In this document: piece by piece, positions 4,617-30,333 of the stretch | How the letters are laid out: each line of letters opens with the position of its first letter | How positions within the stretch are numbered: the first letter of the stretch is position 1 | Sequence record: OM632664.1 | Source: Escherichia phage BEU5 | DNA length: 64,000 nt | Direction: 5' to 3' (one strand) | Notes under the pieces: generated by a model | The model's database searches: none | What the model saw: only the letters and a program-made list of their open reading frames with translations | What the model was told of the DNA's origin: nothing | Program-made: the position numbers and the translations under genes

Positions 4617-4634
4617 GTAGGTTAACTATTCAAG

Positions 4635-4667
4635 TAGCTCCGGTTGAAATATACTGGAGCTATCTTT
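4635..4667 (+). other. imperfect stem-loop after the rIIB-like gene (weak terminator candidate)
   Basis: 9-bp stem with one wobble (tagctccgg/ctggagcta), 10-nt loop, short T-run. Confidence 0.25.
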
Positions 4668-5079
4668 GAAGAGGATACATACTATGGCCAAAGTTTATCG
4701 TGCTAACCGTAAAGCCCATGATGACGATATTATTCGTATGAATGCAGTCGGTTTATCATTGGGAACCATTGCTAAAACACTGGGTGTTCACCCCACTACA
4801 GTTACCTTACGATTACGCTCTCTTGGTATTGAACCAGCCGACACACGTCGAACATTTATGGAGAACGTACTAGCACCATTACCTACTCACGTAGCTGATT
4901 GGTTATCAGAACAAGTAGGACCAAAGTATGAGATTCGACAATACGTCCGAGACTTATTACTAGAAGCCTACAATAATCGTCATAATCATAAGGAAACTGC
5001 TCATGAACGATTCCTCAAAAGATACGTTGGTACAAACTCAGAACTGGTTTCTGAAGGCAGTACCCAGTCCAACGAGTAA
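4666..5079 (+). CDS. hypothetical protein with helix-turn-helix-like segment
   Basis: 137-aa ORF; segment GLSLGTIAKTLGVHPTTVTLRLRSLGI resembles an HTH DNA-binding motif. Confidence 0.35.
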   Translation: MKRIHTMAKVYRANRKAHDDDIIRMNAVGLSLGTIAKTLGVHPTTVTLRLRSLGIEPADTRRTFMENVLAPLPTHVADWLSEQVGPKYEIRQYVRDLLLEAYNNRHNHKETAHERFLKRYVGTNSELVSEGSTQSNE

Positions 5080-5464
5080 AAACATTAGTACTCAGATTGG
5101 TTGTCATCTGGAAGAAGTAGTTGAGATGCTGGAAGAATTGGCTCCAAATTCTGAAGAAGCATACGATACACTTCATAATGCCATTGTAGCTTTAACTGAA
5201 TTGTCAGAATTAATGAAATCCTCTGATAAAGAAGTTTATGCACCTAACAGCAATCGCTTAGCTATTCTGGATGCACTGGCAGACCAGATTGTTACAGCAA
5301 CTGGCATCGGTACTTTCTTGGGTATGAACGTACCTGGAGCACTCACTGAAGTGAACCGTTCTAATTATTCAAAATTTGAAGATGGTGAGCCTGTTTTCAA
5401 TGAGAATAAGAAAGTAATGAAAGGTAAGGATTACACTCCGCCTGATTTAACCCCATTCATTTAA
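5003..5464 (+). CDS. MazG-like nucleotide pyrophosphohydrolase (putative)
   Basis: 153-aa ORF, ATG with AAGGA RBS; EExxE-type motif HLEEVVEMLEEL and downstream acidic helix LDALADQIV; overlaps upstream ORF by 77 nt in another frame. Confidence 0.35.
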   Translation: MNDSSKDTLVQTQNWFLKAVPSPTSKNISTQIGCHLEEVVEMLEELAPNSEEAYDTLHNAIVALTELSELMKSSDKEVYAPNSNRLAILDALADQIVTATGIGTFLGMNVPGALTEVNRSNYSKFEDGEPVFNENKKVMKGKDYTPPDLTPFI

Positions 5465-5469
5465 AAGAG

Positions 5470-5491
5470 CCGCCCATATAGGGCGGTTTTT
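5470..5491 (+). terminator. intrinsic terminator
   Basis: stem ccgccc/gggcgg with loop atata followed by TTTTT, between MazG-like and helicase genes. Confidence 0.65.
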
Positions 5492-5506
5492 GTATCTGGA
5501 GAACTC

Positions 5507-6826
5507 ATGTATAAAAGTACTACTAAGCTGCCACTAAATCCTGGTCAAGAGGCAGCGGCAGAAGGTTTCTTCGACTTTCTGCTCGACCCCAATGCTTCTG
5601 AACTTCGTATTAGTGGACCTGGTGGTACAGGCAAGACATTTACAATGGCTCATATGATTGACGAGATTATGCCTCGTTATCATGAGACATGTAGTCTGAT
5701 GGGAATCCCTGCTCTCTATAACGAAGTTATTATGACTGCTACTACTAATAAGGCAGCAGAAGTATTAGCCCGTGCAACAGGACGTCCTACGTCTACCTAT
5801 CATTCCTTTCAAGGTCTGACAGTACGGAATAACCTGAAGACTGGGGAAGCAGACCTGATTCCATCTAAGTCCTTCAGTATCAAAAAGAATAAGGTCATTT
5901 TTATTGATGAAGCATCAATGATTGACCGTAAACTGAAGAAGTTCATTAACGAAGGTACTCACCAAAGTAAGATTGTTTACTTAGGTGATAAATGCCAATT
6001 GTTACCTGTAAAGGAAACTTCTTCTCCTGTCTACAATGACAGTAGCATTAAAGAGTTTATGCTGACCCAGCAGATGCGTACTGATGTCCCTGAACTCCAT
6101 GCACTGCATGAACAGCTTCGTGGAACCATTGAAGGTAAGCATGGATTCCTGCCTATTAAAGCAGTTCCAGGTATTATCGACTGGATTGAAGATGGTGATG
6201 AAATGAGAAAAGAAGTCGAAGGTCATTTCATGACTAAGACTGACACTCGTATTGTTGCCTATACCAACCAACAGGTTGTTAACTATAACACCTTCATTCG
6301 AGCTATGAATGGATTCCACGGGGAGTTCTGTATTGGTGAAGAGTTAGTAAGTAACTCTGCTATTCAGATTGGTGCTGGTGATCGCCTTAGTATTGAACAG
6401 GAATGCCAGATTGTTGACCAGGATTCTGCTACTCGTAAGATTCTGATTGATTCCTCTGGCATCGAATTAGAAGTACGTGATTGCACCCTGGATACTGGTT
6501 ATGGTGGTGTCTTTGAAGGTATCCCTATTCCGGTAGATATGGATTATTTCATTCGTTTGCAAAAGTACTATGCACACCAAAAGAACTGGGAACGTCACTT
6601 CTATTTGAAAGAAACATTCCCTGAACTTCGAGCATTACATGCTTCTACTGTGCATAAGTCTCAAGGTTCTACCTACGACACCATCTTTATTGATGCTACT
6701 GATTTATCTACTTGCCGTCAGCCTGATGTAGTAGCACGTCTGCTTTATGTAGCAGTATCTCGTGCTCGTCATCGTGTTGTGTTCTATGGCTCTTTGGCAG
6801 AGAAATTTGGTGGTCTGGTTCGCTAA
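5507..6826 (+). CDS. SF1 DNA helicase, Dda/RecD-like
   Basis: Walker A GPGGTGKTF, Walker B IFIDEASMID, motifs TVHKSQGSTYD and YVAVSRAR; preceded by terminator and GGAGA RBS. Confidence 0.8.
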   Translation: MYKSTTKLPLNPGQEAAAEGFFDFLLDPNASELRISGPGGTGKTFTMAHMIDEIMPRYHETCSLMGIPALYNEVIMTATTNKAAEVLARATGRPTSTYHSFQGLTVRNNLKTGEADLIPSKSFSIKKNKVIFIDEASMIDRKLKKFINEGTHQSKIVYLGDKCQLLPVKETSSPVYNDSSIKEFMLTQQMRTDVPELHALHEQLRGTIEGKHGFLPIKAVPGIIDWIEDGDEMRKEVEGHFMTKTDTRIVAYTNQQVVNYNTFIRAMNGFHGEFCIGEELVSNSAIQIGAGDRLSIEQECQIVDQDSATRKILIDSSGIELEVRDCTLDTGYGGVFEGIPIPVDMDYFIRLQKYYAHQKNWERHFYLKETFPELRALHASTVHKSQGSTYDTIFIDATDLSTCRQPDVVARLLYVAVSRARHRVVFYGSLAEKFGGLVR

Positions 6827-6835
6827 GGAGAACTT

Positions 6836-7363
6836 ATGCAACTGGGTGAAAAACAAATCCGTGAAATGACTAATAGTAGTGAACTAGTTCAGGAATTATT
6901 CTTAGCCGAGTTACGTCGGCTAGATAAAGTGCTGGATAGTATCATTACACGTAATGGGGAAACATTCGCTGTATACAACTCAACAGGGTTTCTGTATTTA
7001 GGGGAGTTCTATTCGAGTTCCCGTTCATCACAACAACCCCCTTCTGGTCATCGTCTGGCTCTGGCTAATCACCTACTGGATGATATGCGGGAGTATCTGG
7101 AACAAGCAGGTAAACTTCTGCTAGAAGTCCATATGGTGAATCAGATGGTCTTTCGTCTGGTTCAGGGCTGTAAGACTTATCAAGACGTTCGTGATGCATT
7201 GCCAGAATGCCTCATTGCTATGGATAAACAGGGTCATCTGAAATCCTTACAGAGAACCAGAAAGGCAGCATTTACTCTGGATAATGATGCTATGGCTCTC
7301 CGTCAGTATGAGAAAATCTTGCCGATTATCGAATACTATGCGGGAACCCATCTTATCTTTTGA
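6836..7363 (+). CDS. hypothetical protein
   Basis: 175-aa ORF tightly packed between helicase and DNA polymerase genes. Confidence 0.4.
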   Translation: MQLGEKQIREMTNSSELVQELFLAELRRLDKVLDSIITRNGETFAVYNSTGFLYLGEFYSSSRSSQQPPSGHRLALANHLLDDMREYLEQAGKLLLEVHMVNQMVFRLVQGCKTYQDVRDALPECLIAMDKQGHLKSLQRTRKAAFTLDNDAMALRQYEKILPIIEYYAGTHLIF

Positions 7364-7370
7364 GGTCTGT

Positions 7371-9335
7371 ATGCGTCACATTACATTCAACAATGAGGGT
7401 ATCTACCCTATTGCTATCCTTACTACAACGTTACGTAAGGATGATATTGTCAAAGCATACATGGAACCCTGGGATGTAGATAAAGATTCAGTAATGATTC
7501 TTGAACTTCATACAGCCCCAGGGAAAAAGAAAACTCCTGCTAAAGAGATGCAGGAGTTTATTACCCAAGAATTAGTGCCAGCATTCGAAGCAGCACAAAC
7601 TCAGTATATCATCTGTGGTGATTCTGAATATTACAAACAGCTAACCAAACAAGGTAAAGCTGATGCCAATATTGGCTATGTAATGGATTGTGCTTATGGG
7701 AACCAGAAAGTTATTTACGTTCCCAATTACAGACAAATCTTTTATGACCCGGATAAGGTAAAGACTAAGATTGCTTTATCCATGCAGGCTCTGATTGATT
7801 ATGTCTCTGGTTCTTATGTTGAGCCAGGAACTAAGATTATCCACTATGCTGATTATCCATTAACTCCAGAAGCTATATCTAAGTGGTTAGATAAGTTACT
7901 GGAGATGAATGTTCCATTAGCAGTAGATATAGAAACCTTCAGTCTGAAGCATTATGACTGTGGTATAGGCACTATTACATTCTGCTGGAACAAGCATGAA
8001 GGGATAGCATTCCCTGTGGATTATGAACCAATTGAGGGGGCTACTGAAGCTCCTTATGGTAGACAAGTTCACAACATGCTTGTTCGTTCTATGCTCAGAG
8101 ACTTTTTTATTAAGTATCTGAACAGGCAGATGTATCACAATATTGCCTTTGACGTATATGCACTCATTTACCAGTTATTTATGACAGACCTTCTGGATAC
8201 GGAAGGGTTGTTGCATGGCATGAGTATCATGCTAAGAAACTGGGATTGCACTAAGTTAATTACCTATCTGGCTACTAACTCTTGTGCGGGTAATAAGCTA
8301 AGTCTTAAAGACCAGGCTCAGGAATATGCTGGTAACTATGCTCAAGAAGAAATCAATGACATTACCAGAATCCCATTAGCAGAGTTGTTGGAATACAACT
8401 TAGTGGATGGATTATGTACCTGGTATGTCTATGAAAAGCATTGGGATACTCTGGTTAATGACCAACAGTTAGATGTTTATACAAACATCTTCAAACCTGC
8501 ATGTGAAGATATTATTCAAATGCAGTTAACTGGTATGCCTATCAATATGAAGACAGTATTGGAGGTAGAAGAGGCATTAACCCAAGACTATAACAATGCG
8601 TTAAAAACAATTGCTGACAGTAAAGTAATCAAAGATTTCACCCGTCTTCTTAATGAAGAATGGGTAGAAAAACAGAACCAGATTCTGAAGAAGAAACGAG
8701 TGACTTTAGCTGATGCTAAAGAACAGTTTAACCCAAACTCAGGTATTCAATTACAGAAGCTACTTTTTGAGTTTCTGGAGTTACCTGTACTTGGTTTGAC
8801 TGCAAGTAAACTACCTGCTACTGGCAGTGGCATACTCAAGTCTTTGAAGAACCATACCCAAGATACCAGTATTCTGGAAATTCTTGATGCTCTGATTGAT
8901 TACAAAGCTGTAGATAAAATTCTGACAGCATTTATTCCAGCATTAAAAAATGCCAGACAAGGACCAGATGGTTGGCATTATCTCTTTGGTAATCTGAACT
9001 TAGGTGGGACTGTATCAGGCCGCCTATCCAGTAGTGAACCAAACCTACAGAACCTACCTTCTGGTTCCAGATATGCCAAGATGATTAAAAAATGCTTTGA
9101 GGCTCCTCCTGGATGGATATTCTGTGGGCTAGACTTTGCTTCTCTCGAAGACCGTATATCTGCTTTAACAACCAAAGACCCTAACAAGCTGAAGGTGTAC
9201 ATGGGTGTGACTGTTTATACAGTTACTATAGAAGGAGTTGACCATCATATCCGAGATGATGATACAATCGTTTATGATGGTAAAACTTATACCGGTGAGG
9301 AGTTCTATGACGCTTTTACCCGTGGCCTTCTATGA
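7371..9335 (+). CDS. DNA polymerase (family A), N-terminal fragment: 3'-5' exonuclease domain and polymerase motif A
   Basis: Exo I VDIETFS, Exo II YHNIAFDVYAL, Exo III YNLVDGLC, motif A LDFASLEDRI (DYSQIELR-like); start moved to ATG 7371 (GAGG RBS) within track ORF 7284..9335; frame ends at TGA 9333-9335 shortly after motif A. Confidence 0.8.
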   Translation: MRHITFNNEGIYPIAILTTTLRKDDIVKAYMEPWDVDKDSVMILELHTAPGKKKTPAKEMQEFITQELVPAFEAAQTQYIICGDSEYYKQLTKQGKADANIGYVMDCAYGNQKVIYVPNYRQIFYDPDKVKTKIALSMQALIDYVSGSYVEPGTKIIHYADYPLTPEAISKWLDKLLEMNVPLAVDIETFSLKHYDCGIGTITFCWNKHEGIAFPVDYEPIEGATEAPYGRQVHNMLVRSMLRDFFIKYLNRQMYHNIAFDVYALIYQLFMTDLLDTEGLLHGMSIMLRNWDCTKLITYLATNSCAGNKLSLKDQAQEYAGNYAQEEINDITRIPLAELLEYNLVDGLCTWYVYEKHWDTLVNDQQLDVYTNIFKPACEDIIQMQLTGMPINMKTVLEVEEALTQDYNNALKTIADSKVIKDFTRLLNEEWVEKQNQILKKKRVTLADAKEQFNPNSGIQLQKLLFEFLELPVLGLTASKLPATGSGILKSLKNHTQDTSILEILDALIDYKAVDKILTAFIPALKNARQGPDGWHYLFGNLNLGGTVSGRLSSSEPNLQNLPSGSRYAKMIKKCFEAPPGWIFCGLDFASLEDRISALTTKDPNKLKVYMGVTVYTVTIEGVDHHIRDDDTIVYDGKTYTGEEFYDAFTRGLL

Positions 9336-9890
9336 ACAACGGTATAAGATTTCCGATGAAGGTTTCATCTTAAATCTTGCAAACAATCAACCCCTAAAAC
9401 CGACTCTCAATCCTAATGGATACCTTAAGGTTGGATTAGCTAATGGCGATGGTACACATCACCAAGAGCTACTTCATATTCTGGTAGCTAAACACTTCAT
9501 CCCTAATCCTTATGGCTATGAACAGGTAAACCATAAAGACGGTAATAAACTGCATTGTCATAAGGATAATCTGGAATGGTGCTCTGCTACTCAGAATGTT
9601 GAACATGCACTTAAAACAAAGCTACGTCCTGGTTACATGTCTGCTGACGATAAAGAGAAGTATCTCTTTGAGGTGCTGGCAGGTAAGCAAGTTAAAGACA
9701 TTGCTTTTGAAATAGGTAGGCGTCCTGAAACTTTGCATAAGATGCTCAGAACTACTGCTGACCGACTTGGTGTTCGAAATGAGTGGGATGATGTTATGAG
9801 GAGAAATAGAAAAGATGTTGCTTTACGACAGCTTGCCAAAATCAACTCATGACTTCACTGGCAAGAAAATTGACAACGTAGTCAAAGCTG
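9200..9890 (+). mobile_element. homing-endonuclease insertion splitting the DNA polymerase gene between motifs A and B
   Basis: polymerase reading frame is interrupted between motif A (about 9120-9200) and the DIHT-like segment YDGHSLRAYAYFGE (about 9900); interval is occupied by an HNH endonuclease ORF in a different frame. Confidence 0.6.
9307..9852 (+). CDS. HNH homing endonuclease
   Basis: HNH signature NGYLKVGL...HQELLHILVAKHFIPNP...VNHKDGNKLHCHKDNLEW...TQNVEH; ATG 9307 preceded by GAGGAG RBS and overlapping the polymerase-N stop; track ORF 9238 starts at TTG. Confidence 0.75.
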   Translation: MTLLPVAFYEQRYKISDEGFILNLANNQPLKPTLNPNGYLKVGLANGDGTHHQELLHILVAKHFIPNPYGYEQVNHKDGNKLHCHKDNLEWCSATQNVEHALKTKLRPGYMSADDKEKYLFEVLAGKQVKDIAFEIGRRPETLHKMLRTTADRLGVRNEWDDVMRRNRKDVALRQLAKINS

Positions 9891-18377: not shown

Positions 18378-18461
18378 TTAGTGCTCTGGTATATTACTTT
18401 TAACCCCTAGGTTATGCCACAGTAATACAACAGATTGGGTCATCTGAAACCAGAGCACTAA
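18378..18461 (+). ncRNA. long-stem element C immediately 3' of tRNA-Pro
   Basis: 13-bp perfect inverted repeat ttagtgctctggt / accagagcactaa enclosing 58 nt with two internal hairpins (attact/agtaat and cagat/atctg). Confidence 0.4.
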
Positions 18462-18824
18462 CCTAATGTGTGGGATGTAACAGTTAAATCCAGTTGCCGG
18501 AAGTGCAATTCTAGATACGCTGCCAATGCGTGAACGGTAAGGCTGTACAGGACTCGGACTCCCATCCCACCTCCTTATTTGAACCAGGTATGAACGGCTT
18601 ACTTAGTATTAACTGCATAGGGGTATGTTAGGGATACTTAGGTGGTAAGCAGTTGGTAAGAATCCAACATGGTTCATTCCCTATTAGCAGTAACATAGTC
18701 CTGAGTACGTGTGCTCTAAAGACAATATTGGCGAGACAGTCCAATAGCTGCTAAATTAAATTCGTCCATTCCTCTTGGATGTGTAGCGAGTGAAGGTAAC
18801 ACTTAAAAATCCATGACCCACAGA
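18462..18824 (+). other. ORF-free, structured non-coding segment downstream of the tRNA cluster
   Basis: about 360 nt without a plausible ORF on either strand; inverted repeat gtgggatg ... catcccac spanning about 100 nt; ends at an intrinsic terminator. Confidence 0.35.
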
Positions 18825-18852
18825 AGCCTCCGGTTAATCCTGGAGGCTTTTT
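18825..18852 (+). terminator. intrinsic terminator closing the tRNA/ncRNA block
   Basis: GC-rich stem gcctccgg/ccggaggc-type hairpin followed by TTTTTT. Confidence 0.65.
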
Positions 18853-18876
18853 TATTTAATTAAATAAGGAAGTAAG

Positions 18877-19248
18877 ATGAACCGTATTACTGAAGAACAT
18901 ATTAATAGCATCATTGAAGGTGCTTACTACTTCAATATGGCTAAAGCTGTAGAGAATGAAGCAGTTCTGATTCCTGAAGACCATTTAAAAGCATTGAGTA
19001 CAACTACTGTTTGTGCACTGGTTCTTTCTAATGGATTCACTATTACTGGTAAATCTGCCTGTGTTGACCCCAACACCTTCAATGAAGAGTTAGGTAAGAA
19101 ATATGCTTACGAACAGGCCATTGATAAGGTATGGGAATTGGAAGGCTATTTGCTTAAGCAAAACTTGTATGAGAAAGCTCAGAGCCAGGAAATGCTAAAA
19201 GGATTCCTGCAAGATGACAACTGTGAAGGTGGGGGCTGTAAAATCTAA
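18877..19248 (+). CDS. hypothetical protein
   Basis: 123-aa ORF with AAGGAAG RBS; C-terminal CEGGGCK; no confident family assignment. Confidence 0.45.
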   Translation: MNRITEEHINSIIEGAYYFNMAKAVENEAVLIPEDHLKALSTTTVCALVLSNGFTITGKSACVDPNTFNEELGKKYAYEQAIDKVWELEGYLLKQNLYEKAQSQEMLKGFLQDDNCEGGGCKI

Positions 19249-19733
19249 TGGAAATTAAAGTTCACTTTACTAATTACATCGGAACCAAATGTGTAAATGG
19301 TTTCCCGATGAACAAGGCTGACTACTGCAAACTTCGTGGTTGGGATGTACCTGCTAATGAAGACCCGTTAGAGGAGGGTTACTTAGTAGAGTACCCCGAT
19401 TCTAACCCTAACCATGAGCAATTCCGTGGTTATATTAGTTGGTCACCTAAAGCTGCATTTGAAGAGGCATACTGTGATGTAGACAAAGGCTGCACGTTTG
19501 GTCACGCAGTAGAGCTTATGAAATCAGGTTTTAGAATGTCCCGTAAAGGCTGGAATGGAAAAGGAATGTATATCACATTGGTATCCGGTGAAAACTGGGC
19601 TATGGATAAACATGAAAATACCATATGCATGAAACAGGATTGGCTGGGTATTAAAACCGCTGACAATGAATTTATGCCATGGGTTCCATCTCAATCAGAC
19701 GTATTAGCAGAAGATTGGGTACTAGCTCAATAA
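19248..19733 (+). CDS. DUF2829-like protein (Tad2-like anti-Thoeris candidate) with N-terminal extension
   Basis: C-terminal half GHAVELMKSGFRMSRKGWNGKGMYITL...MPWVPSQSDVLAEDWVLAQ matches the pattern I recall for DUF2829 (GkxvrRxgWnGkgmyi ... W.PsqxDllAeDW). Confidence 0.45.
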   Translation: MEIKVHFTNYIGTKCVNGFPMNKADYCKLRGWDVPANEDPLEEGYLVEYPDSNPNHEQFRGYISWSPKAAFEEAYCDVDKGCTFGHAVELMKSGFRMSRKGWNGKGMYITLVSGENWAMDKHENTICMKQDWLGIKTADNEFMPWVPSQSDVLAEDWVLAQ

Positions 19734-19741
19734 GAATTAAA

Positions 19742-19766
19742 GCCCCTCTAGTGAGGGGCATTTTTT
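19742..19766. terminator. bidirectional intrinsic terminator at the convergence of plus-strand genes and the minus-strand vRNAP gene
   Basis: stem gcccctc/gaggggc with 4-nt loop, T-run on plus strand and A-run (T-run on minus) on the other side. Confidence 0.7.
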
Positions 19767-19767
19767 A

Positions 19768-22700
19768 TTAGTGGGTAAGGTTGAACCAAGGATTGAGGGT
19801 AGGTGCTCTTAGTCCTTGTCCGAAGCCTAATGAATAATCCAGTCTTCCTTCAGCCAGCATGGTTAACATGTTGTCCTGAATTGGTAGACCTACATTACCA
19901 AACATGGCAGGAGCGGGTACTACTGTAGCAATCAGAGAATGTACTGGGTTGTTTCTAATCATGCTCATAGCAACTTTAATGGAACGAATCTTAAAGTTGT
20001 AGAACCACATCAGACCCATGCTTTCCATATAACCACGGAAACGACCAGGCAATCTGTCATAGTTAACAAACTCTTCAGTTACTTGACCTAATGCTTCAGA
20101 AGAAGATTTTTTCTTACGTTTCACTAAATCATCATAGATGATGGCTTTAGCAATGAAGTCTGAATACTCTACTGTTTTCTGGATACCCTGGAACAGAGCA
20201 GTGTCCTTAGCAATAAGAGCATAACGGCCAGCATTACGTACTTTTTCTGGAAGTTTATTAGCAAGTTTTTCCATGTACTCATGAATCTTACCTTCAGCTA
20301 CTAACAGGTCATCACGACTAATACCAGCATCAGCAATAGAAGAGAACTCACCTGCTTCAATCAAAGGCCAGATGCTCATACGACGATGGCTATCAGTAAT
20401 AGATTGAATCTCGGTTTTAAGTTTACGAACCAGATTAGGATTGCCTTCAGCAGCACGTAATTCTGCTTCTGCATCAATCTGACGTAAACGAGATTTAATG
20501 TACTGATTAATCTCTGACGTCTTACGAGGAATGTTCACAGCAATATCCTTAACAGGAACACCACGTCCAATCATCTGGTAGATGTTAGCAAGGAAGTTAA
20601 CTGCCGGTACTACAACAGATTTAACAACAATTACTGTCTTAGCATCCTTCACCAAATTCTGAATGGTATTTTCAGCATTCATTACTACATGATATGCCTT
20701 ATTACCAAATGCACCGAGGAACATCTTCTTAACAGTATCAAGGGTGCTAGATGACCAACGAGAGTTACCAGTCCATACATCACCAATAGATGCAGCACGA
20801 TAGCCAAGTGCATCATTCAGCATATCCCTACGAACCCATAACTCATCTTTACCAAAGAGTTCTTCAGCCTTACGACGAGTCTCAATGTTCATCAGGTTAA
20901 TTGCATCAGCCAGTACTGGGTCATCAATTTTACCTAACAGGTTTACATATTGAGATTTATTAGCATTAGAGTCTTTAATGTCTTTCTCATACATAGCATG
21001 TAATTGCTCGATGAGAATGTCATTAAAACGTTGTGCTTTAGCCTCTTCCACCTGACGACCACGCCATACACCAACCATCTTAGCAAAATGATTGTCTTGG
21101 TTTAGATGCTTCAACATATTAGGGTCAACGGATTGCTCATAAGCAACTACCTGACCTTTGCTGTTATAAATTGGCATCAGTGGTTCACGTCCACGTTCAC
21201 CTTTAGCCAGAGCTTTGGTAATACGCTCTACGGTTGGTTTGTCAGTAATACGACCAGCAACCATAGTACCTAACGTAAAGCCAGTACCAATATCCACGCC
21301 ACCAGCAGTATTACGAACGTTCTGAAGAATACCTTGAGAGTATGGGGCACGGGCAGCTACTGGGCTGAAGTAATAACCTTTAGAACCAGTACGGAAACCA
21401 GTGCTTCCCTGATAAGTACCAATACGAGTAAAAGATTGGCTATTTAACTTAGCAAACTCTTTATCGTCAGCAATAATCAAATTCACACCTTGCTGGTTCT
21501 CTACAGGGATATAGCCCTTAAAGTGATTCAGCAAAGTACGGTTATCACCTTTAGCTTTACGCATCTCTTCAGTACGTTGACCCACCATATAAGCAATGGA
21601 GAACTCCATACCTTCCACTTCTGATTGAGCCAATTCTGACAAAAGGTCGCGGTCAGACTTATTCATCAATTCCAGAGAGTACAAAGTAATGAGCTTATCA
21701 ATAGCAGCTACATCTGCCACAGGACCATTAGTAATACGTTCACCTAACAAACGACTAATAGCATGGGCATTACGAAGGAGGTTATTACCTACTTCCCCTG
21801 TAATCATGTATTGAGCCAATTGCTTAGATTTCTTCTGAACCAGATTCCAGTTTCTACCTGCTTGGTTCTGAATCTCTTTTTCCAGAGTAGAGATTTCATC
21901 TTTCACTTTCTTAAATGAAGAGAGTAAATCTCTAATTTCAGCCATGCTCATAGTTTCACGTAGAACAGCTAAATCTGTTTTACCTAAACCAGTATGCATT
22001 GCAGACCACTCGGTATCAGTCAGTTTACGAGAGAACTTACCAGCAATGACTGTAGGTAAATGCTCACGGAATTGTTGACGGTCTTGAGAAATCTGGCTCT
22101 TAACCAATTTGATTAAGTCATAGACATTGGCATTAGTCTTAGTACGGCCAACAATGTCATTAACTAAGTCATGGAAAGGTTGCCATACTTTACCCTGGTT
22201 CATAGCAGTCATAATACCCTGAGCCACTATTTCACCTTGTTTTTCAGATGCAATAGCAGCAGTCAGTTTAGCCAGATGAGCAACACCTTTAGCAGCTACA
22301 TTAGAAGGGTTAGCAATTACCTTATCTGCCTTTTCAATAACAGTTTCAGATAACCGTTCAATGCTATCCGTTACGTACTGATTAGCACGGTCAATGAAAT
22401 TACCGGTAGGGGTTGCTACAGCATCATAGAAAGACTCTCGTTTCAGAGCAGCAGCCATGATTGTTTCTGACAGAGCATCAATACTGTCCTGAACATTAGT
22501 AGCTTTCTGGTCACCAGCCATACGACGGTTCAGAGATTCCATTACCTGAGTGCCTGCATTGGTAAGCAGAGTATCTACATCATTACCTAATTTCTTATCT
22601 GCTTTAGGTACAGGCATTTCTTTAATGATTGAACGTAGTTCTTCATTAACCATAGCCAGACCCAGGAATGTAGGTAACAGACTGGTTCTGCCTTTGGCAT

Positions 22701-25700
22701 CTACTTCAACCAGATTAGCACCAGAGATAGTGTCATATTTCTGTTGAGCGTAGTAACGGTCAGCAGGGTTAGTACTATCAGGGTCAGCCATGAAATGTTC
22801 TACCGTAAGGTGTTTCATTACATGGGTATAAAGTTCCTGAGCACGAGCCATAGCGTGTGGGTCAATTGCAGCTTCAGTTGCTAATGCAGCAGTAACCATC
22901 TGGAATACAGATTGTTCCTGAGCAGTCATATTGAAGCCACGAGACTGAACATCACGAACCAGTCGAGTAGCACTCATTAATGCATTAGCCACATTGCCAC
23001 GACGTTCTACTTCTGTAACTGGGTCAGTACGAAGGTAATCAGTTACCAGTTTATCGAAGGTCTGATTCAACTGAGACAGACGTTCATTGTTGCCATATGC
23101 TTTGCTATGGAACAGTGTGCCATCTTTAGCTACTGCCTGAGTTGTAGGTTGGCTACGCATCAGAATTGCAGAGTTAAACAGCAGATTAGAGAACATATCT
23201 TCTCCCAATGCAGGAGCTTGTTTACGTCCCCAAATCAATTTCTTAATGGCCTGATAAACATCTTTCACCATTTGAACCAGTGAAGATGTTCTCTTCTGTT
23301 TAGCAGCAAGAGCACGGTTAGCTAACCCCCAAGCCATAAACTCATTAAGAGCAGCAGCTTTAGAGATAGCTGGGTCAACAAAGCCATTACTCAAATGACC
23401 TTCAATAGTTGCAATAGCATCAGCATATGCTTCTCTCATTTCTGGAGAATCTTTGGAAATATCCAGAGAACGGAACTGTTCCATCAGACCTTCAAGGTTC
23501 TCAATAGCCTGCTTAGAAGTAGGGCTTACTTCATTACCCTGATAGAAGGAATAAACTTCCTCAAAGGTAGAAGCATGAACCAGTTCATGAATGAGGGTTT
23601 CCATAGATGGGCTAACCAGATAAATGGTCTTATCATCGAAGTTAGTCCAGCCATAAATATTGCCTGCCTGAGCTTCTTCCATTTCCTGAGAAGTCAATTC
23701 AGTAACATTCTTCTGACGAGCATACTCTGCAACCTGAGTAGGTGTACCGTAGATAATCTTATAGTCTTTAGCTGCCAGTGATTTCTGAATCTCAGCAAGA
23801 GTAGCTGCCTGAGTAGATGGCAGATTACTAATCTTAGCCAGATTACGAATAGCAGTAGCAGACAGGATACGAACACCGGATGCCTTATGCTCACGGCCTA
23901 CCATACCAAAGTCTGGATTCACTGGTTCTTTTTCAGAAACAGTTTCTTCTTTGACTTCAGCCTTAGCCTTAGCGACTTTTTGTTTACGGGCTTCTAACTC
24001 TTCACGGAAAAGTTTATTCAGTTCATCAGCCTGTTGTTCAGGAGTCATATTGCTGAGGTCAATCTTACCGTTGTTCTGATAAGGAGCACCTACAGCAGCC
24101 ATCTGGTCAATGGACAGATTTACCTTATCCAGTACCTTATGGCGAATATCTACACCCAGTGCAATATTACGTAAGTTACGTTCAATCAGAGATGCAGCAT
24201 TAGCAATATCATCTACAGTAGCATTCTCACGTTGGTCATATTCCAGAGCAGATTTACCAATTGCTTCCAATGCTTCAGGGGACAACTTGCTGAAATCTAC
24301 ATTTTTCATGAACTTAGCATATGATTCGTAAACATTCTTAATAGGGTTACCCTGCCAAGAAGTGTAAACAGCTTCATTAGCCTTACGACTAGCATCAGTG
24401 ATGTCATTCAAACCAATGTTCATACCATCAAAGATTTTGAGGGTATTCTTTGGTGCACCTTTCATAGTGGAAAGAGTTTGCATCATCATGCCGTCACCAG
24501 TACCAATAGTCATAAATGGAATACCTGCTACACCAGCCTGTGCTGGGGCATAGATACTCATTGGTACACGCATACGGTCATCAAGGTTAGTAGCTAATAC
24601 CTGATTTGCTACTTCTGCATTTTCTGAGCCAGCAATGTAGAAAGTCTGAGAACCAGTCTCAATCATAGGAGCTAAGTTATTCAGAGAAGCCTGAATATCA
24701 TTCAGTTCTTTCTGAGTAAGGAAATCGCCTTTCTTCCATGTCGGGTCTTTAGCCTTCTCTGTCAGTTTCTCCTGTACTCGCTGTTTGAACATATCTTCCA
24801 GCACTACAGATTGAATCTGAGTAGCTTTCTGTAATTGTTCAGTGGAGTACACCAGACTTTCACCCACAGTCTGAGTAATACCATTACGTAGTGGTTCTAC
24901 AAAGAAGTGCAGCATATTTTCCTGAAGTGCCTTCAGTTGCTCACCCTTAATGGTATAGGTCTTAGGATTGATTTTCCCTTTGGCTCCTGCACCTGTGGAT
25001 TGTAGTTCCAGTACACCTTTACGTTTAACAGGAACGGTAGAAGTCAGTGTTTCCATATCTTTCAGGAAACGAGCAAGAAGTTCTTCAGCATGTGCTTCTG
25101 AAGCAGCTTGCTTACCAAACATTGCCATAGCAGCAGAAATATTTGGGTCTTTAGCACGAGCTTTCAGCACATCGGACATACGCTCATAGATGGCATCAGT
25201 AACAGAACTAACCAGCTTACCTGCAATACCACGAGCACCAGAACCATAGATGGTAATAGTCAGTGGGTTCTTAGCAATACCACGTTTAAGTTCTAAAGCA
25301 CCATTCTCACCGAGATTAATATCCGGTAAGAACAAATCCATCAGAGAAAGAAGACTGTCTATCTGGGACTGAATAGGCATATTAGAAGCGTAGTTACTAC
25401 GTAACTTACCCAACGATTCCATCAAAGCATTAGTGGATGCTTGATATAAATCATTATTGTCAGCAGTAGAACGATGCTCATTCATGGTCTTATTTGGAGA
25501 ACCAATGAACAAGCCACCTTTGGCAATGTTACGAATCCAGTCAGGGGTAAACAGGCCACCTGTCATTAGCATCATGGCATTGATTGGACCATTAGTAACA
25601 CCATCTGCTTCTACATACAGTGGGGTTACAAATGCAGATTTATCCTCTGCTACTAAGTAACGGGAATACTCCATAAGAGCCATCAATGCTACGAATGACT

Positions 25701-28700
25701 TCCTATCCCCTAATGCTGTATTCAGAACACCAACTGCATTTTCTGGTAAGGAACCAGTGGTATTAAACTCAACCATCATATCAATGGCTGGTTTCAGATT
25801 ACCTTCCAGTAATTTAGTCAACTCGTCAGACATAACCTCACGAGTCATAGTATGGACTTTAATGTCCAATGCCTGAGCCAGACCTAACTGGAATGCAGAG
25901 AAGTCTTCATTGTTCTGGTTCGATAAATCCAAAGTAGCTTTAGTAGGTAGGATAGCCTCACGAACCAGTTTGGCTGATTGAGGATTGTATTTACCTAACA
26001 TCTGCATACGACCAACACGGGTCATATTATATGCATAGTGAATAGGCACAGTAGAGATGTCTTCACTCTGTGCTCTTACCTGCTCAATGACGGAAAACAG
26101 TTGGTTGTAAGAGTCCTCTACTGAACGGTTCTTACCTTCCAGAGATTTAGCATGATTATCATTAAGTAACTCTTTATTCAGAGTACCAGCACCCATCAGT
26201 TCGAGAATACGGTCTTTACCTAACGTCTCGTAGAATTGAACCATTGGAGTGTGTACATAGAACTCTGTAGCCTGCTCTGCTTTCAATGCAGCCTTCTGTT
26301 CTGGAGTATTACGAACAGCAGGATTACGAAGCTGAGTATTAGCTACAGGAGGAATATCATCACCAAAGAACATCTTCTCTGTAGGATTCACTAAAACAGC
26401 TTCTTCAATAGCAGTAGGGAAGCTATTAATTGGGTCGAAGGAATCCAGTTCAGTAATGGTGTACAGACCAATAGTCTTCTTATTATCTGGGTCAATTTCT
26501 GACATATCCACGATGTTCTCTACAACATCAGTAGACTCTACAAATGCAGCCAGAATTTCCGCAGCCATTGCTGTAGGGATACCTTTGGTATAGCCCAATG
26601 GAGCATTTGGATTACGAGATAATCCCCAGTAAGACTCAATTTTCTGAGCCAGGGAACTAACTGCTTCAGTGAGTGTCATACCAGTATCAAATTGCTCTAC
26701 TAAACCTTCTGGCAGCAGAGCTTGGTCAATACCAGTAATAGCAGCAACATCTTTTGCATCTTTGATAGCAGTATTGCTGGTAGCAGTAAGTCTCCACTGA
26801 AGACCTGCTAATACAGCAGTCTGTAGCAATTGCTCATTGTACTTAAAGGTATCCCCATCCTGTTCAACGATGTTAAGTAACTTACCGCCTACCCAACGGT
26901 TGGCTTCTGTACCCTGAGCAAAACGTTTACCAACATCCTTAGTGTTAAGGAACTTAGCCAGACGGGAACGAAGAATATCAGCAATACCTTCCCCATGTTC
27001 CATGAGTTCTTTGTATCGCTTAATAACTTCCCCATTAAAAGCAGGATTAGCAACTTCTTTCTCAGTAAAGAGTTCATAACGAGCACGGGAAGACAGAGCT
27101 TGAGCTACATCTTTTAGAGGTGCTTCTGAACCAACAGTACGGGATTTCTGTTCTTCCGGTAAGGTAAAGGACAATTTGAAATAGTTCTTAATACCCTCTG
27201 CTTTAGAATCAGCAGTACCTACCAATGAGGGGTAAACAGCATCGATACCTTCTCTTAATTCTTCTGTAACTGTGCTTTCTTTTGCAGAAGTTTCAGTTTC
27301 TTTAACAGATTCAGTAGGTTGCTTGATGGTGTCCTCATTAGTAAGGTTAACATCCTGTTTTTCAGACTGGTTCACAGGTTCTTTTATAGCCTGTGGGCTA
27401 GACTCTTTAGTAGTAGGTTCTGTTTTAACAGATTCACTAACAGGAGTCTTAGTCTGTACAGTAGATGTAACTGGTTCCTGTTTTGTAACAGGAGTTTCTT
27501 TAACCTGATTCACGGAGTCAGCTTTCGGTTGAGAAGAAGCAACGTCTCGATTGCCTTGACGGAATGCCTTGACCACCTCAGCAGCAGGAGCGTTAAGACG
27601 TGAATCCAATGGAGTAACTTTTATATGACTGACCTTCAGTTCCGGGTAAGCCGAAGCGAGGGCATTAGCAATATCCGCTACCGTTTTCGCTTCAAGAGCA
27701 ACTTGCTGGGCAAATTTAACCGACTTAGTGTCATAGGGATTGACCCCCAATCCGGTACGGCTACGAACCCATTCTCTGTCAGCAGTAAGAGCTTGGTAGT
27801 GGACAGACTTATTCTTATCCGCATCCCCCGTAACAAGATGCTCATTCAACGCTCCAACCTTATTCTGCATGTGCTGGGCGAACTGCATAAAGTCGTTCAG
27901 GTAAGCGGAGGCCAACTCGAAATTACCAGAGTTATACGCAGACCGAATCCTATTCGCATGTTGCAACGCAGAGTATTGTCCTTCCTGAGTTCTGCTCTCA
28001 TCCGTTTTAATCTGTTTACTCACAATGTCTTGAGGACGTAATCCAAGACGGGCAGCTTCTGCATCATATTCCCGTGCCCCCTTCAGGATTGCAGCAGCAT
28101 TCTGAAGGGCAGCAATTTGGCGATTATTCAGTTTAATACGACCATCAGCAGCATGTTTAAGAACAACATTTACAGATTCTGGATTGAGCTTTTCAGGAGC
28201 TACTTCAGCAGCTAATGCTACGTTCTGCATTTCCTGTGGACTGGATTCTTCAGTCACATCCAAAGAACCATTCTGGGCAGATTCATTAATCATTCGATTA
28301 ATAACATTCAGTGCACCAATTACTTTTGGTGTGTTCTGAATATTAGCTGTCAGATTTGTATAACGATTGAGTAACTCAATAGCCGGAGAATCTTTAGGAA
28401 TGCTATCCAGTGCAGCAGGGTCACGGTTAATGAATTGCTCAAACTCTGAAACAGCATCATACATATAAGATGCAGCTTCCATCAGTGCTTGAGGATTAGA
28501 TTCATCTAATGTGTTAACTAGGTCTGCTAACTTTTGAATAACCTGTACTTGGTCAGTAGAACCAGCTACAGCATTACGAATATGCTCTGGTGCTTCCTGA
28601 TAATTTTCAGGATTAAAACGAGTAGCATTCATTAAGTCAGAAACATACTGGTGTGCTGCAACTTTCTGTTCCGGAGTAGCATCAGTTGCTTCAACAGCAT

Positions 28701-30270
28701 CACGAATAGTAACTTCTGCTTCTGGTGCTTGAGCCATAGCTTCTTGTGCTGCCTGTGCAACATAGTCATCAGCAACAGGAGATGCTTCTTCATTCTGCTT
28801 CATAACCCGCTCACCACGAGCTACCAAAGTGTTCTTAATAGGGGAAACAACCTTACCTGCTACACTACCAGCAGCTTTAACACCAGCCATTGTGGTACGC
28901 AATACAGGAGCAGTTGCAGCACCTGCTAAACGAGCAGCACCAGCCGGAGCCTGTACAACACCAGCAGAACCAAAGCCATAAAGAGCACCTAAACCAGCTT
29001 GTGTACCGACACCTTTAAGCAAGTCTTGGTTCTTATCAATGTTTTGTTGCTGTGCAATATTCTGAGCCAGTTGGCCTGTAGCACCCTGAACACCTTCTTC
29101 CACTGTTTCACGGGCAAGGTTCATACCTACAGCACCTAAAGAACCAGCACGGAAAGGAGCCATCTCAAAACGAGATACCAGAGGACCAGTTGCAGCAGCA
29201 ATAGGTAATTGAATAGCAGCAGCAGTAAGACCAGTTTCAGATGCAGTCTGACGACGAGCCTGTTCTGGAGACATACCATCTTTAATATGTTGCTGATAAA
29301 CAGGAGACTTCTCTAAGTCTTTAAGACTCATCTTCATAATTTCATCAGCAGTTTGTTGGTATGCACCACCAGCTTCCATTACACCAACACCAACCATACC
29401 TGGTGCAGCTCTGCCTACAGTAGAAGCAATACGAGCCAGGGACTGAGTACCAGTACCTGCATCAATAGCACCAGCCAATGCAGCACTACGAAGAGTATTT
29501 GCTGGAACAACTGCTTTACCCAGTAAAGATGCACCCTTTAATACAGGACCAGCACCTAATAGAGAACCTACCCCTTCTGCTAACCCATCAGAAATAATAG
29601 AGTCAGTTTGAGCAGCATTCTCAATTGAACCTACAAAATCACGTCCAAATTTAGATAAGGAAGCTACTATGTCATTAGTGCCTTCTTTCTTATCTGTTTG
29701 ATACTGACGTTCACTCTCTACCTCACTCATTAAGTTACGAGCAGCGAAGAGCTTACGTTTATCTTGTAATGCTTGGCTTTGGGTAGCATGGACAGCATCA
29801 TTAAACTTACTCAATTGTTGAGCAACAACAGCACCTGCGTCATCGTTGAGTAAGCCTGCCCCAAGAGCACCAATGCCCCCAAGGGTATTAACAAAACCAA
29901 GACCAACACCAGTAGCAATATCCCCCAGTTCTTCCCCAGGAGTTCTTGTAGTAACTGAATCATTGAATACCTGGTTCCCTGCATCAGCACGAGCGTTGAT
30001 AAGTTGTAAGCCTTGCTCAACCCCATACTTATTCATGATTTGCATTGGAGTCAGATTCATGAAATCTGATTGCACTGTCCCTGGTTCAAATGCATTAGCC
30101 CCAACATTACCAGTACGGGCAGCTTGCATTTGATAAGCAGCATCAGGAGAAACAAGAGGAGTAGTGACACCTTGTTCAGCTTTCTTCTGGGCGGTTGCAG
30201 TAGAGACGTCAACTTGCTTTGCATTGGTTACGCTGTCTGCGAACCCAGCCAGTCTATCAAATACTGACAT
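19768..30270 (-). CDS. virion-encapsidated RNA polymerase (N4 vRNAP/gp50-like giant protein)
   Basis: single ORF of 3500 aa from ATG 30270 (AGGAAA RBS; track ORF starts 18 nt upstream at TTG); size and position at the head of the late structural block match N4 vRNAP; hairpin promoters of the type it recognises are present in the early region. Confidence 0.85.
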   Translation of the reverse strand: MSVFDRLAGFADSVTNAKQVDVSTATAQKKAEQGVTTPLVSPDAAYQMQAARTGNVGANAFEPGTVQSDFMNLTPMQIMNKYGVEQGLQLINARADAGNQVFNDSVTTRTPGEELGDIATGVGLGFVNTLGGIGALGAGLLNDDAGAVVAQQLSKFNDAVHATQSQALQDKRKLFAARNLMSEVESERQYQTDKKEGTNDIVASLSKFGRDFVGSIENAAQTDSIISDGLAEGVGSLLGAGPVLKGASLLGKAVVPANTLRSAALAGAIDAGTGTQSLARIASTVGRAAPGMVGVGVMEAGGAYQQTADEIMKMSLKDLEKSPVYQQHIKDGMSPEQARRQTASETGLTAAAIQLPIAAATGPLVSRFEMAPFRAGSLGAVGMNLARETVEEGVQGATGQLAQNIAQQQNIDKNQDLLKGVGTQAGLGALYGFGSAGVVQAPAGAARLAGAATAPVLRTTMAGVKAAGSVAGKVVSPIKNTLVARGERVMKQNEEASPVADDYVAQAAQEAMAQAPEAEVTIRDAVEATDATPEQKVAAHQYVSDLMNATRFNPENYQEAPEHIRNAVAGSTDQVQVIQKLADLVNTLDESNPQALMEAASYMYDAVSEFEQFINRDPAALDSIPKDSPAIELLNRYTNLTANIQNTPKVIGALNVINRMINESAQNGSLDVTEESSPQEMQNVALAAEVAPEKLNPESVNVVLKHAADGRIKLNNRQIAALQNAAAILKGAREYDAEAARLGLRPQDIVSKQIKTDESRTQEGQYSALQHANRIRSAYNSGNFELASAYLNDFMQFAQHMQNKVGALNEHLVTGDADKNKSVHYQALTADREWVRSRTGLGVNPYDTKSVKFAQQVALEAKTVADIANALASAYPELKVSHIKVTPLDSRLNAPAAEVVKAFRQGNRDVASSQPKADSVNQVKETPVTKQEPVTSTVQTKTPVSESVKTEPTTKESSPQAIKEPVNQSEKQDVNLTNEDTIKQPTESVKETETSAKESTVTEELREGIDAVYPSLVGTADSKAEGIKNYFKLSFTLPEEQKSRTVGSEAPLKDVAQALSSRARYELFTEKEVANPAFNGEVIKRYKELMEHGEGIADILRSRLAKFLNTKDVGKRFAQGTEANRWVGGKLLNIVEQDGDTFKYNEQLLQTAVLAGLQWRLTATSNTAIKDAKDVAAITGIDQALLPEGLVEQFDTGMTLTEAVSSLAQKIESYWGLSRNPNAPLGYTKGIPTAMAAEILAAFVESTDVVENIVDMSEIDPDNKKTIGLYTITELDSFDPINSFPTAIEEAVLVNPTEKMFFGDDIPPVANTQLRNPAVRNTPEQKAALKAEQATEFYVHTPMVQFYETLGKDRILELMGAGTLNKELLNDNHAKSLEGKNRSVEDSYNQLFSVIEQVRAQSEDISTVPIHYAYNMTRVGRMQMLGKYNPQSAKLVREAILPTKATLDLSNQNNEDFSAFQLGLAQALDIKVHTMTREVMSDELTKLLEGNLKPAIDMMVEFNTTGSLPENAVGVLNTALGDRKSFVALMALMEYSRYLVAEDKSAFVTPLYVEADGVTNGPINAMMLMTGGLFTPDWIRNIAKGGLFIGSPNKTMNEHRSTADNNDLYQASTNALMESLGKLRSNYASNMPIQSQIDSLLSLMDLFLPDINLGENGALELKRGIAKNPLTITIYGSGARGIAGKLVSSVTDAIYERMSDVLKARAKDPNISAAMAMFGKQAASEAHAEELLARFLKDMETLTSTVPVKRKGVLELQSTGAGAKGKINPKTYTIKGEQLKALQENMLHFFVEPLRNGITQTVGESLVYSTEQLQKATQIQSVVLEDMFKQRVQEKLTEKAKDPTWKKGDFLTQKELNDIQASLNNLAPMIETGSQTFYIAGSENAEVANQVLATNLDDRMRVPMSIYAPAQAGVAGIPFMTIGTGDGMMMQTLSTMKGAPKNTLKIFDGMNIGLNDITDASRKANEAVYTSWQGNPIKNVYESYAKFMKNVDFSKLSPEALEAIGKSALEYDQRENATVDDIANAASLIERNLRNIALGVDIRHKVLDKVNLSIDQMAAVGAPYQNNGKIDLSNMTPEQQADELNKLFREELEARKQKVAKAKAEVKEETVSEKEPVNPDFGMVGREHKASGVRILSATAIRNLAKISNLPSTQAATLAEIQKSLAAKDYKIIYGTPTQVAEYARQKNVTELTSQEMEEAQAGNIYGWTNFDDKTIYLVSPSMETLIHELVHASTFEEVYSFYQGNEVSPTSKQAIENLEGLMEQFRSLDISKDSPEMREAYADAIATIEGHLSNGFVDPAISKAAALNEFMAWGLANRALAAKQKRTSSLVQMVKDVYQAIKKLIWGRKQAPALGEDMFSNLLFNSAILMRSQPTTQAVAKDGTLFHSKAYGNNERLSQLNQTFDKLVTDYLRTDPVTEVERRGNVANALMSATRLVRDVQSRGFNMTAQEQSVFQMVTAALATEAAIDPHAMARAQELYTHVMKHLTVEHFMADPDSTNPADRYYAQQKYDTISGANLVEVDAKGRTSLLPTFLGLAMVNEELRSIIKEMPVPKADKKLGNDVDTLLTNAGTQVMESLNRRMAGDQKATNVQDSIDALSETIMAAALKRESFYDAVATPTGNFIDRANQYVTDSIERLSETVIEKADKVIANPSNVAAKGVAHLAKLTAAIASEKQGEIVAQGIMTAMNQGKVWQPFHDLVNDIVGRTKTNANVYDLIKLVKSQISQDRQQFREHLPTVIAGKFSRKLTDTEWSAMHTGLGKTDLAVLRETMSMAEIRDLLSSFKKVKDEISTLEKEIQNQAGRNWNLVQKKSKQLAQYMITGEVGNNLLRNAHAISRLLGERITNGPVADVAAIDKLITLYSLELMNKSDRDLLSELAQSEVEGMEFSIAYMVGQRTEEMRKAKGDNRTLLNHFKGYIPVENQQGVNLIIADDKEFAKLNSQSFTRIGTYQGSTGFRTGSKGYYFSPVAARAPYSQGILQNVRNTAGGVDIGTGFTLGTMVAGRITDKPTVERITKALAKGERGREPLMPIYNSKGQVVAYEQSVDPNMLKHLNQDNHFAKMVGVWRGRQVEEAKAQRFNDILIEQLHAMYEKDIKDSNANKSQYVNLLGKIDDPVLADAINLMNIETRRKAEELFGKDELWVRRDMLNDALGYRAASIGDVWTGNSRWSSSTLDTVKKMFLGAFGNKAYHVVMNAENTIQNLVKDAKTVIVVKSVVVPAVNFLANIYQMIGRGVPVKDIAVNIPRKTSEINQYIKSRLRQIDAEAELRAAEGNPNLVRKLKTEIQSITDSHRRMSIWPLIEAGEFSSIADAGISRDDLLVAEGKIHEYMEKLANKLPEKVRNAGRYALIAKDTALFQGIQKTVEYSDFIAKAIIYDDLVKRKKKSSSEALGQVTEEFVNYDRLPGRFRGYMESMGLMWFYNFKIRSIKVAMSMIRNNPVHSLIATVVPAPAMFGNVGLPIQDNMLTMLAEGRLDYSLGFGQGLRAPTLNPWFNLTH

Positions 30271-30333
30271 AGTAGGTTTCCTATACAAACTTATATCTAT
30301 TAGAAATCACACTATACCTAGTGTAAGGACGAG

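Follow-up and report, generated by a model that had tools for sequence, protein, structure and literature searches.

Gp34.65 of phage SPO1 is the founding Thoeris anti-defence 2 (Tad2) sponge, and its structures (PDB 8SME, 8SMF and 8SMG) are the reference for the family that Pfam lists as PF11195, or DUF2829. In the SPO1 Tad2 complex with glyco-cyclic ADP-ribose (gcADPR) described by Yirmiya et al., the main ligand contacts are W25, N26, W73 and D79; I63, T65, D67, H71, S76 and T78 make secondary or water-mediated contacts. ModTad2, from a Myroides odoratus prophage (PDB 8V3E and 9EIB), is a sponge for His-ADP-ribose (His-ADPR) and for cyclic UMP and CMP (cUMP/cCMP), and is not an inhibitor of type I Thoeris. 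HgmTad2 (the same protein as AcrIIA7) and SptTad2 (PDB 8KBI-8KBM, 8WJC and 8WJD) are dual sponges for gcADPR and for cyclic dinucleotides (CDN), their CDN pocket being built from a 35-41-residue insertion between strands β2 and β5 that SPO1 Tad2 does not have. In N4-like phages, the interval from the primase gene to the gene for the virion RNA polymerase (vRNAP) has been described by Fedorova et al. as an anti-signalling hotspot, with Tad2, Tad3, Acb4, Sequestin, Bes1 and Bes2 among its contents. The DNA considered here (64,000 nucleotides from Escherichia phage BEU5, record OM632664.1; "the window" in what follows) belongs to an N4-like Enquatrovirus, and the subject is a gene pair of that interval that corresponds to N4 gp48 and gp49. 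These two names are used below for the genes of the window and for their products. Gp49 is a two-domain protein, with a Tad2 domain in its C-terminal half and a module of another kind in front of it.

The gp49 open reading frame (ORF) runs on the + strand from an ATG at 19248 to a TAA at 19731-19733. Its 161-amino acid (aa) product contains both peptides, GHAVELMKSGFRMSRKGWNGKGMYITL and MPWVPSQSDVLAEDWVLAQ, that had been quoted in the first-pass annotation of this DNA, which proposed a candidate anti-defence gene of the DUF2829/Tad2 kind. The ORF and its 123-aa neighbour lie on the strand and at the positions claimed for them there. The protein is identical with N4 gp49 at 158 of 160 residues (99% aa identity), and it matches phrog_872 over its full length (E 2e-66). 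At the nucleotide level the identity of the gp48-gp49 region is 100% with Escherichia phage BEU13 and related phages and 97.6% with phage N4, whose RefSeq record already labels the gp49 gene 'DUF2829 domain-containing protein' (a label that the first-pass annotation had missed). More than 1600 homologues of gp49 are found, and comparison with a G7C-like orthologue gives ratios of nonsynonymous to synonymous substitution (dN/dS) of about 0.1 in each half of the protein (0.09 in the Tad2 half, 0.11 in the N-domain). Gp49 is therefore not a chance reading frame.

Assignment of residues 83-159 to the Tad2/DUF2829 family is firm, on profile matches and a predicted structure alike. Against PF11195, gp49 scores 84.2 bits (gathering cutoff 25; E 9.1e-24) over profile positions 2-72 of 73. 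When gp49 is compared with all PDB sequences by phmmer, the best matches are ModTad2 (9eib, E 8.6e-16) and SPO1 Tad2 (8sme, E 4.3e-15); HgmTad2/AcrIIA7 and SptTad2 match more weakly and over part of the domain (E 1e-9 to 3e-10 in the case of AcrIIA7). The AlphaFold2 (AF2) monomer model of gp49, with a predicted local distance difference test score (pLDDT) of 87.8, places in the Tad2 half a helix at 84-92, strands at 97-99, 108-112, 132-136 and 142-144, a second helix at 149-153 and a last strand at 157-159. This is the layout of the Tad2 fold: an N-terminal helix, an antiparallel sheet and short helices in the loops. Foldseek comparison of the model with the PDB returns Tad2 proteins or AcrIIA7 as all of its top 24 matches (probability 1.00; target template-modelling (TM) scores of 0.69-0.86 for Tad2). 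The family claimed for the C-terminal half in the first-pass annotation thus stands, in profile, fold and ligand-contact residues.

The pocket is conserved as well. Eight of the 10 SPO1 ligand contacts are identical in gp49 (W102, N103, I135, T137, D139, W145, S148 and D151). The remaining two are changed, T78 conservatively to S150 and the water-coordinating H71 to M143. All of 59 full-length two-domain homologues have W102, N103, T137, W145 and S148, and 58 of them have D151. The Tad2 domain of gp49 is, by its sequence, intact and under purifying selection. A second pocket of the HgmTad2 type was considered and rejected: the spacing from N103 to S148, which spans the β2-β5 insertion, is 44 residues in gp49 (49 in SPO1 Tad2 and 67 in HgmTad2), and because it is shorter even than that of SPO1 Tad2, a CDN pocket in gp49 is unlikely.

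Gp49 is likely to be a Tad2-family sponge for the ADPR-derived alarm molecules that are made by Toll/interleukin-1 receptor (TIR) enzymes of the Thoeris type, keeping the effector of the defence system off. By homology with SPO1 Tad2, residues ~83-159 would assemble into a homotetramer with ligand pockets at the protomer interfaces, each formed by W102 and N103 of one chain and W145, S148, S150 and D151 of another. The likeliest occupant would be 3′cADPR (1″-3′ gcADPR), possibly His-ADPR; with the signal soaked up, the defence effector would never be switched on. The CDN task would fall to Acb4, the product of gp48, which may be translationally coupled to gp49 as its upstream gene. Gp49 would then be co-translated with a cyclic-nucleotide sponge, inside an anti-signalling island of several genes.

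Several points weigh against this proposal. No experimental work on N4 gp49, or on other proteins that join this N-domain to Tad2, is found in the searchable literature, and the 18 homologues tested by Hadary et al. could not be checked for a Tad2 of the N4 type. An 'EcTad2' is named in the methods of Li et al., without further description there. The Tad2 family is functionally diverse, with members that inhibit type I, type II or type IV Thoeris, the cyclic oligonucleotide-based antiphage signalling system (CBASS) or Pycsar. Gp49 is equally similar to ModTad2 and to SPO1 Tad2, and the ligand (3′cADPR or His-ADPR) is therefore not fixable from sequence; the canonical pocket residues of these two proteins are nearly alike. 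SPO1 H71 is not kept, the two-domain clade having M or V at this position. The N-domain of gp49 is fused straight onto helix α1, and helix α1 is the core of the SPO1 Tad2 tetramer. Finally, a σ70 promoter scan finds no promoter between the hairpin at 18822-18851 and the Acb4 start codon.

The nearest alternative keeps the fold and the sponge but changes the signal: the main target of gp49 might be not the type I signal but His-ADPR (type II Thoeris), N7-cADPR (type IV Thoeris) or a cyclic mononucleotide of Pycsar. This is a real possibility, though a less likely one. Homologues of Tad2 do inhibit type II Thoeris, type IV Thoeris and Pycsar. Gp49 is as close to the His-ADPR binder ModTad2 as to SPO1 Tad2 (8.6e-16 and 4.3e-15, as above), and its PSQSD shares with the PSVSD of ModTad2 a serine at the position of SPO1 T78. 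On the other hand, the residue at this position (150 in gp49) is T in 35 and S in 24 members of the two-domain clade, and so is no fixed marker of specificity. Moreover, most Tad2 homologues that have been tested inhibit type I Thoeris, and about 99% of Tad2 proteins are reported to keep the gcADPR pocket. The binding sites for Pycsar signals and for CDN belong to the other interface, in HgmTad2 formed by a long insertion that is absent from gp49.

A second alternative concerns the N-terminal half, which the first-pass annotation had not recognised as a distinct and widespread module. This segment has no Pfam family and does not match any solved structure. A word-index search with the 81-aa N-domain returned just 9 proteins, so that an exhaustive HMMER search was needed; with E≤1e-3 as the limit this gave 1350 cluster representatives, of which 629 reach E≤1e-10. 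In its homologues the module is N-terminal, internal or alone, the last in proteins of 88-108 aa. Among the best 150 matches its Pfam partners are Sequestin (PF21825; 54), Tad2 (39), Acb4 (20), the Acb2/Tad1 hairpin (4) and WDGH (1). Four of these five families are signal sponges, and the exception is a single WDGH match whose position was not checked. Fusions include Acb4-N-Sequestin, N-Tad2-Sequestin and N-Acb2/Tad1-Sequestin. A local census of 157 proteins with profile hidden Markov models (HMM) comprises 38 N-Tad2 and 32 N-Sequestin proteins, 28 in which the module is joined to an unrecognised domain, 22 in which it is alone, and 11 Acb4-N-Sequestin proteins. As judged from these relatives, it is a separate mobile module that gp49 shares with other sponge proteins. 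Conservation reaches 90% or more at some 24 of its positions, and aromatic and charged residues are frequent there (K14, R30, W32, E38, Y45, E48, Y49, Y62 and W65 among them); predicted models give it a mixed β/α fold.

The module might, accordingly with its distribution, be the main or an independent active part of gp49, which would then be a two-in-one inhibitor comparable with the Acb4-Sequestin and Acb4-Tad2 fusions. The size of the family, its conservation (including the dN/dS of 0.11) and the predominance of sponges among its partners favour such a role, as does the precedent of Sequestin, which was discovered by the same reasoning from fusions. The module also occurs in stand-alone genes. 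One of these is directly upstream of an Acb4-Sequestin gene, the start of which it overlaps; another, an 88-aa gene (protein P0143, 3001-3267 of locus L010), lies between a DnaB-helicase module and the gene for a single-stranded DNA-binding protein (SSB), with no recognisable sponge neighbour. All the same, a main or independent part for the N-module in gp49 is to be held only tentatively. That it acts autonomously against defence systems, as a new family of sponges or by binding a defence protein, with a target of its own in either case, is similarly a minority prospect. On the more conservative reading, in which gp49 is a Tad2 sponge first of all, the N-domain would provide that sponge with an interface for dimerisation or with an accessory function.

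Known anti-defence proteins were also compared with the N-module, and none of those compared is a satisfactory identity for it. Sequestin is an all-helical fold of 60-80 aa; it is rejected, since the N-module is mixed β/α and gives no PF21825 match at E≤1, and in the fusion proteins the PF21825 region is separate from the N-module and adjoins it. Lockin has a curved, mostly β protomer that forms cog-like hexamers, and is reported to be absent from complete phage genomes of INPHARED. The N-module is found in 122 INPHARED records, which argues against this identity (Lockin was compared by description only). PDB 6E3C, which served Hadary et al. as a filter, is rejected as well, being the Dec decoration protein of phage L. 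The direct binders Tad3-Tad8 are excluded only indirectly, by lack of a sequence or fold match in the PDB.

The 28 proteins with an unrecognised partner (P0124, P0125, P0126 and 25 others) carry, after the N-module, a C-terminal region of at least 55 aa in which no domain is recognised; a few have a sub-threshold match to the Acb2/Tad1 hairpin. They are candidates for undescribed sponge domains. Should the N-module prove to be autonomous, these 28 proteins would point to further sponge domains yet to be discovered. N-domain genes are recurrently found beside SSB genes, in N4-like phages, in Vibrio phage 41E34.2 and on the contig of P0143.

Neighbours of this sort are what might be cited for a role of gp49 outside defence, as a buffer of NAD- or ADPR-related metabolites or as an aid to replication or recombination. 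The gp49 gene stands at the end of the replication block, among SSB, RuvC-like and Sak4 genes; stand-alone N-domain genes are likewise found beside SSB genes, and Bes1 and Bes2 may evade signalling indirectly. Gene position is nevertheless the sole support of this reading, which is improbable: every protein of the Tad2 fold that has been characterised is a sponge for immune signals, the ligand pocket of gp49 is intact, and its partner gene encodes a proven sponge, Acb4. That gp49 is an anti-CRISPR protein of the AcrIIA7 type, as GenBank labels on its homologues in phages Mimir124 and Huey would have it, is more improbable still: AcrIIA7 is a DUF2829 protein with a partial-domain match to gp49, but its binding to Cas9 has never been shown, it binds gcADPR and cGG as HgmTad2, the label has been spread loosely (the Acb4 homologue of Escherichia phage 24-32N is also mislabelled 'anti-CRISPR protein') and the CRISPR systems known in E. 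coli are of types I-E and I-F, not II-A.

The preferred reading of gp49 as a Tad2 sponge is consonant with its surroundings. The upstream neighbour, gp48, which the first-pass annotation had not recognised as a sponge, is a known one with experimental support. It scores 117.9 bits (cutoff 27) against PF13876, the Acb4 (anti-CBASS 4) sponge family, and phmmer matches it to the solved Acb4 structure 9e4w (E 6.8e-4). Doherty et al. gave N4 gp48 the name Acb4; in their work it is both necessary and sufficient as the trigger of Panoptes, since N4 plates again on Panoptes when gp48 is knocked down and expression of gp48 alone sets the system off. The gp48 TAA stop overlaps the gp49 start codon (TAATG), as is usual where the translation of two genes is coupled, and Tad2 and Acb4 often occur as fusions or as neighbours.

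The rest of the island was compared with Pseudomonas phage Ab09, the reference phage of Fedorova et al. Gp48 has a homologue in the Acb4 portion of Ab09 gp59 (E 8e-21), and gp46 and gp47 have counterparts in Ab09 gp60 (Bes1, broad evasion of signalling 1) and gp61 (Bes2), each of which relieves both Thoeris and CBASS by a non-sponge mechanism. Since gp46, gp47 and gp48 match Bes1, Bes2 and Acb4 of Ab09, the locus is the hotspot already described for N4-like phages. As read from the sequence, the island of the window consists of Bes1, Bes2, Acb4 and the N-domain-Tad2 gene, and extends over ~16.36-19.73 kb, with the primase/SSB genes on one side and the vRNAP gene on the other (Table 1). PADLOC reports nothing for gp46-gp49, as is expected of a library of defence systems.

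Table 1. Coordinates in the window of the anti-signalling island, its parts and its right-hand boundary
Feature	Position	Strand	Basis
N4 gp46 orthologue, RuvC-like; orthologue of Ab09 gp60 (Bes1)	16363..16920	+	47% identity, E 2e-53 to Ab09 ORF60; RuvC-like in AlfredRasser record
N4 gp47 orthologue; homologue of Ab09 gp61 (Bes2)	16923..17366	+	31% identity, E 1e-9 to Ab09 ORF61
tRNA block (Asn, Ser, Thr, Pro), splitting the island	17697..18375	+	ARAGORN; Rfam tRNA matches
Terminator-like hairpin, 12-bp stem and T-run; ends 25 nt before Acb4 start codon	18822..18851	+	Terminator scan
Acb4 sponge gene, N4 gp48 orthologue, 123 aa	18877..19248	+	PF13876, solved structure, literature
Two-domain protein gene (N-domain and Tad2 domain), N4 gp49 orthologue	19248..19733	+	ORF, homology
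N-terminal module, residues 1-80 (core ~8-78), outside any Pfam family; homologue of the N-domain of RyR Tad (CB1 gp68)	19248..19487	+	Sequence homology
Tad2-like (DUF2829, PF11195) domain, residues 83-159; predicted to bind ADPR-derived signals	19494..19724	+	Profile, fold, pocket residues
Bidirectional terminator-like hairpin between convergent gp49 and vRNAP genes	19742..19759	both	Terminator scan
Virion RNA polymerase gene (N4 gp50), 3506 aa; right-hand hotspot boundary	19768..30288	-	ORF; N4 annotation; published hotspot limits

The position of the pair between the tRNA block and the vRNAP gene, the terminators on its two sides (here terminator-like hairpins) and the accessory character of the site, which is now that of a published anti-signalling hotspot with Tad2, Acb4 and Sequestin, all agree with the first-pass annotation. 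Its further claim that the pair is outside the three main modules of the genome holds in part: gp48-gp49 is set off from the rest of the replication block by the tRNA cluster and a hairpin, but it is the distal end of that long + strand block (1-19733), which converges on the - strand late block. Terminator-like sites are in excess in the 3 kb around the pair (8 seen, 2.3 expected). The σ70 scan gives no + strand promoter for gp48-gp49, and one - strand site against a chance expectation of 6.5; an Rfam scan of 17300-19900 gives nothing above threshold beyond the four tRNAs. The ~450 nt from tRNA-Pro to the hairpin (18376-18821) contain no + strand ORF of at least 40 aa, no Rfam match and no σ70-like promoter, and just two tiny ORFs are annotated in the matching stretch of the AlfredRasser record. 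Between gp47 and the tRNA block, at 17381-17545, there is a strongly hydrophobic 54-aa ORF (MATKLLLGVVVFIVLILLIVRII...) without a Pfam match, which is 'hypothetical' in the AlfredRasser annotation.

Related loci vary in detail. In the G7C-like locus of Escherichia phage 24-32N (Gp52-Gp55; 2725-4242 of locus L004), two extra small ORFs of 82 and 77 aa, neither with a Pfam match, flank the N-domain-Tad2 gene. On the N4-like Logan contig ERR9538823_10191, the homologue of gp49 (protein P0121, 2838-3242 of locus L011) is an N-domain followed by an unrelated 60-residue tail, which looks as if the Tad2 domain had been truncated or its frame shifted; upstream of it is an Acb4 gene.

The Tad2 call on gp49 is thus supported as correct, and was already known from database annotation and from the published hotspot. 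What it means for N4, a long-studied model phage, is that a compact anti-signalling island (Bes1, Bes2, Acb4 and N-domain-Tad2) stands beside the vRNAP gene. This is of use in reading the host-range data of N4 and the BASEL phages on strains that carry Thoeris, CBASS or Panoptes, and in phage engineering. The N-module, a large family without a Pfam entry, can serve as bait for new sponge domains.

Of the characterised sponges, SPO1 Tad2 provides the fullest comparison. It is of the same family and fold as the C-terminal half of gp49, with ~40-45% identity in the domain, and the two have in common the residues W25, N26, I63, T65, D67, W73, S76 and D79 (SPO1 numbering). Both also have a short β2-β5 insertion, so that the gcADPR-type pocket is probably the only one in gp49. 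As a single domain of 89 aa from a Bacillus myovirus, SPO1 Tad2 differs from gp49, which adds an N-module of 80 aa and has M in place of H71 and S in place of T78. ModTad2 is an equally close sequence match, and has the same Ser at the T78 position; its extra flanking strands open a second pocket per V-shaped dimer, while the insertion of gp49 is the shortest of the set. HgmTad2/AcrIIA7 and SptTad2 share with gp49 the DUF2829 core and the gcADPR site with its W/N and S/T/D residues, but carry the CDN insertion that gp49 does not have (Foldseek target TM 0.57-0.62).

For the N-module, the closest described protein is RyR Tad, gp68 of Pectobacterium phage vB_PatP_CB1 (Fedorova et al. 2026 preprint), whose N-terminal module is homologous to that of gp49, with the motif EGYLVxY...SWSPxxxF. 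BLASTP of the gp49 module finds gp68 with E 2e-6, and a profile HMM of 157 segments matches gp68 residues 2-69 (E 1e-12, 33.9 bits). A structural match of the module in the BFVD database to the RyR-domain protein of Yersinia phage TG1 has a probability of 1.0. RyR Tad and gp49 both consist of the N-domain and a C-terminal sponge, and both are encoded in the N4-like hotspot, but the sponge of RyR Tad is a helical domain like RyR Repeat12, not Tad2. The gp68 N-domain forms a domain-swapped dimer in which β1 is donated to the partner protomer. In the monomer model of the isolated gp49 N-domain, confidence is lowest over residues 1-16, to which no strand is assigned; this is compatible with a domain swap, though not proof of one. 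The gp68 N-domain lacks the equivalents of G12, R30, W32, E48, N55 and Y75, all nearly invariant in the family, so that the inactivity of this domain may not extend to the family as a whole.

The combination of CBASS and Thoeris sponges in one locus or one polypeptide is common to N4, to Acb4-Sequestin of Ab09 (gp59), to Acb4-Tad2 of Pasteurella phage Pm86 and to the Tad2 / N-domain-Acb4 pair of Clostridium phage CP51. The last (vB_CpeS-CP51 genes 006 and 007; 1295-1965 of locus L007) consists of a stand-alone Tad2 of 68 aa, followed by an N-domain-Acb4 fusion. CP51 is a siphovirus of a Gram-positive host in which the two genes lie among head genes, and the three modules of N4 are seen there in a rearranged form. 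In comparison with these multi-sponge fusions, N4 has no Sequestin domain, keeps its sponges in two separate and translationally coupled genes, and carries the N-domain on Tad2 rather than on Acb4.

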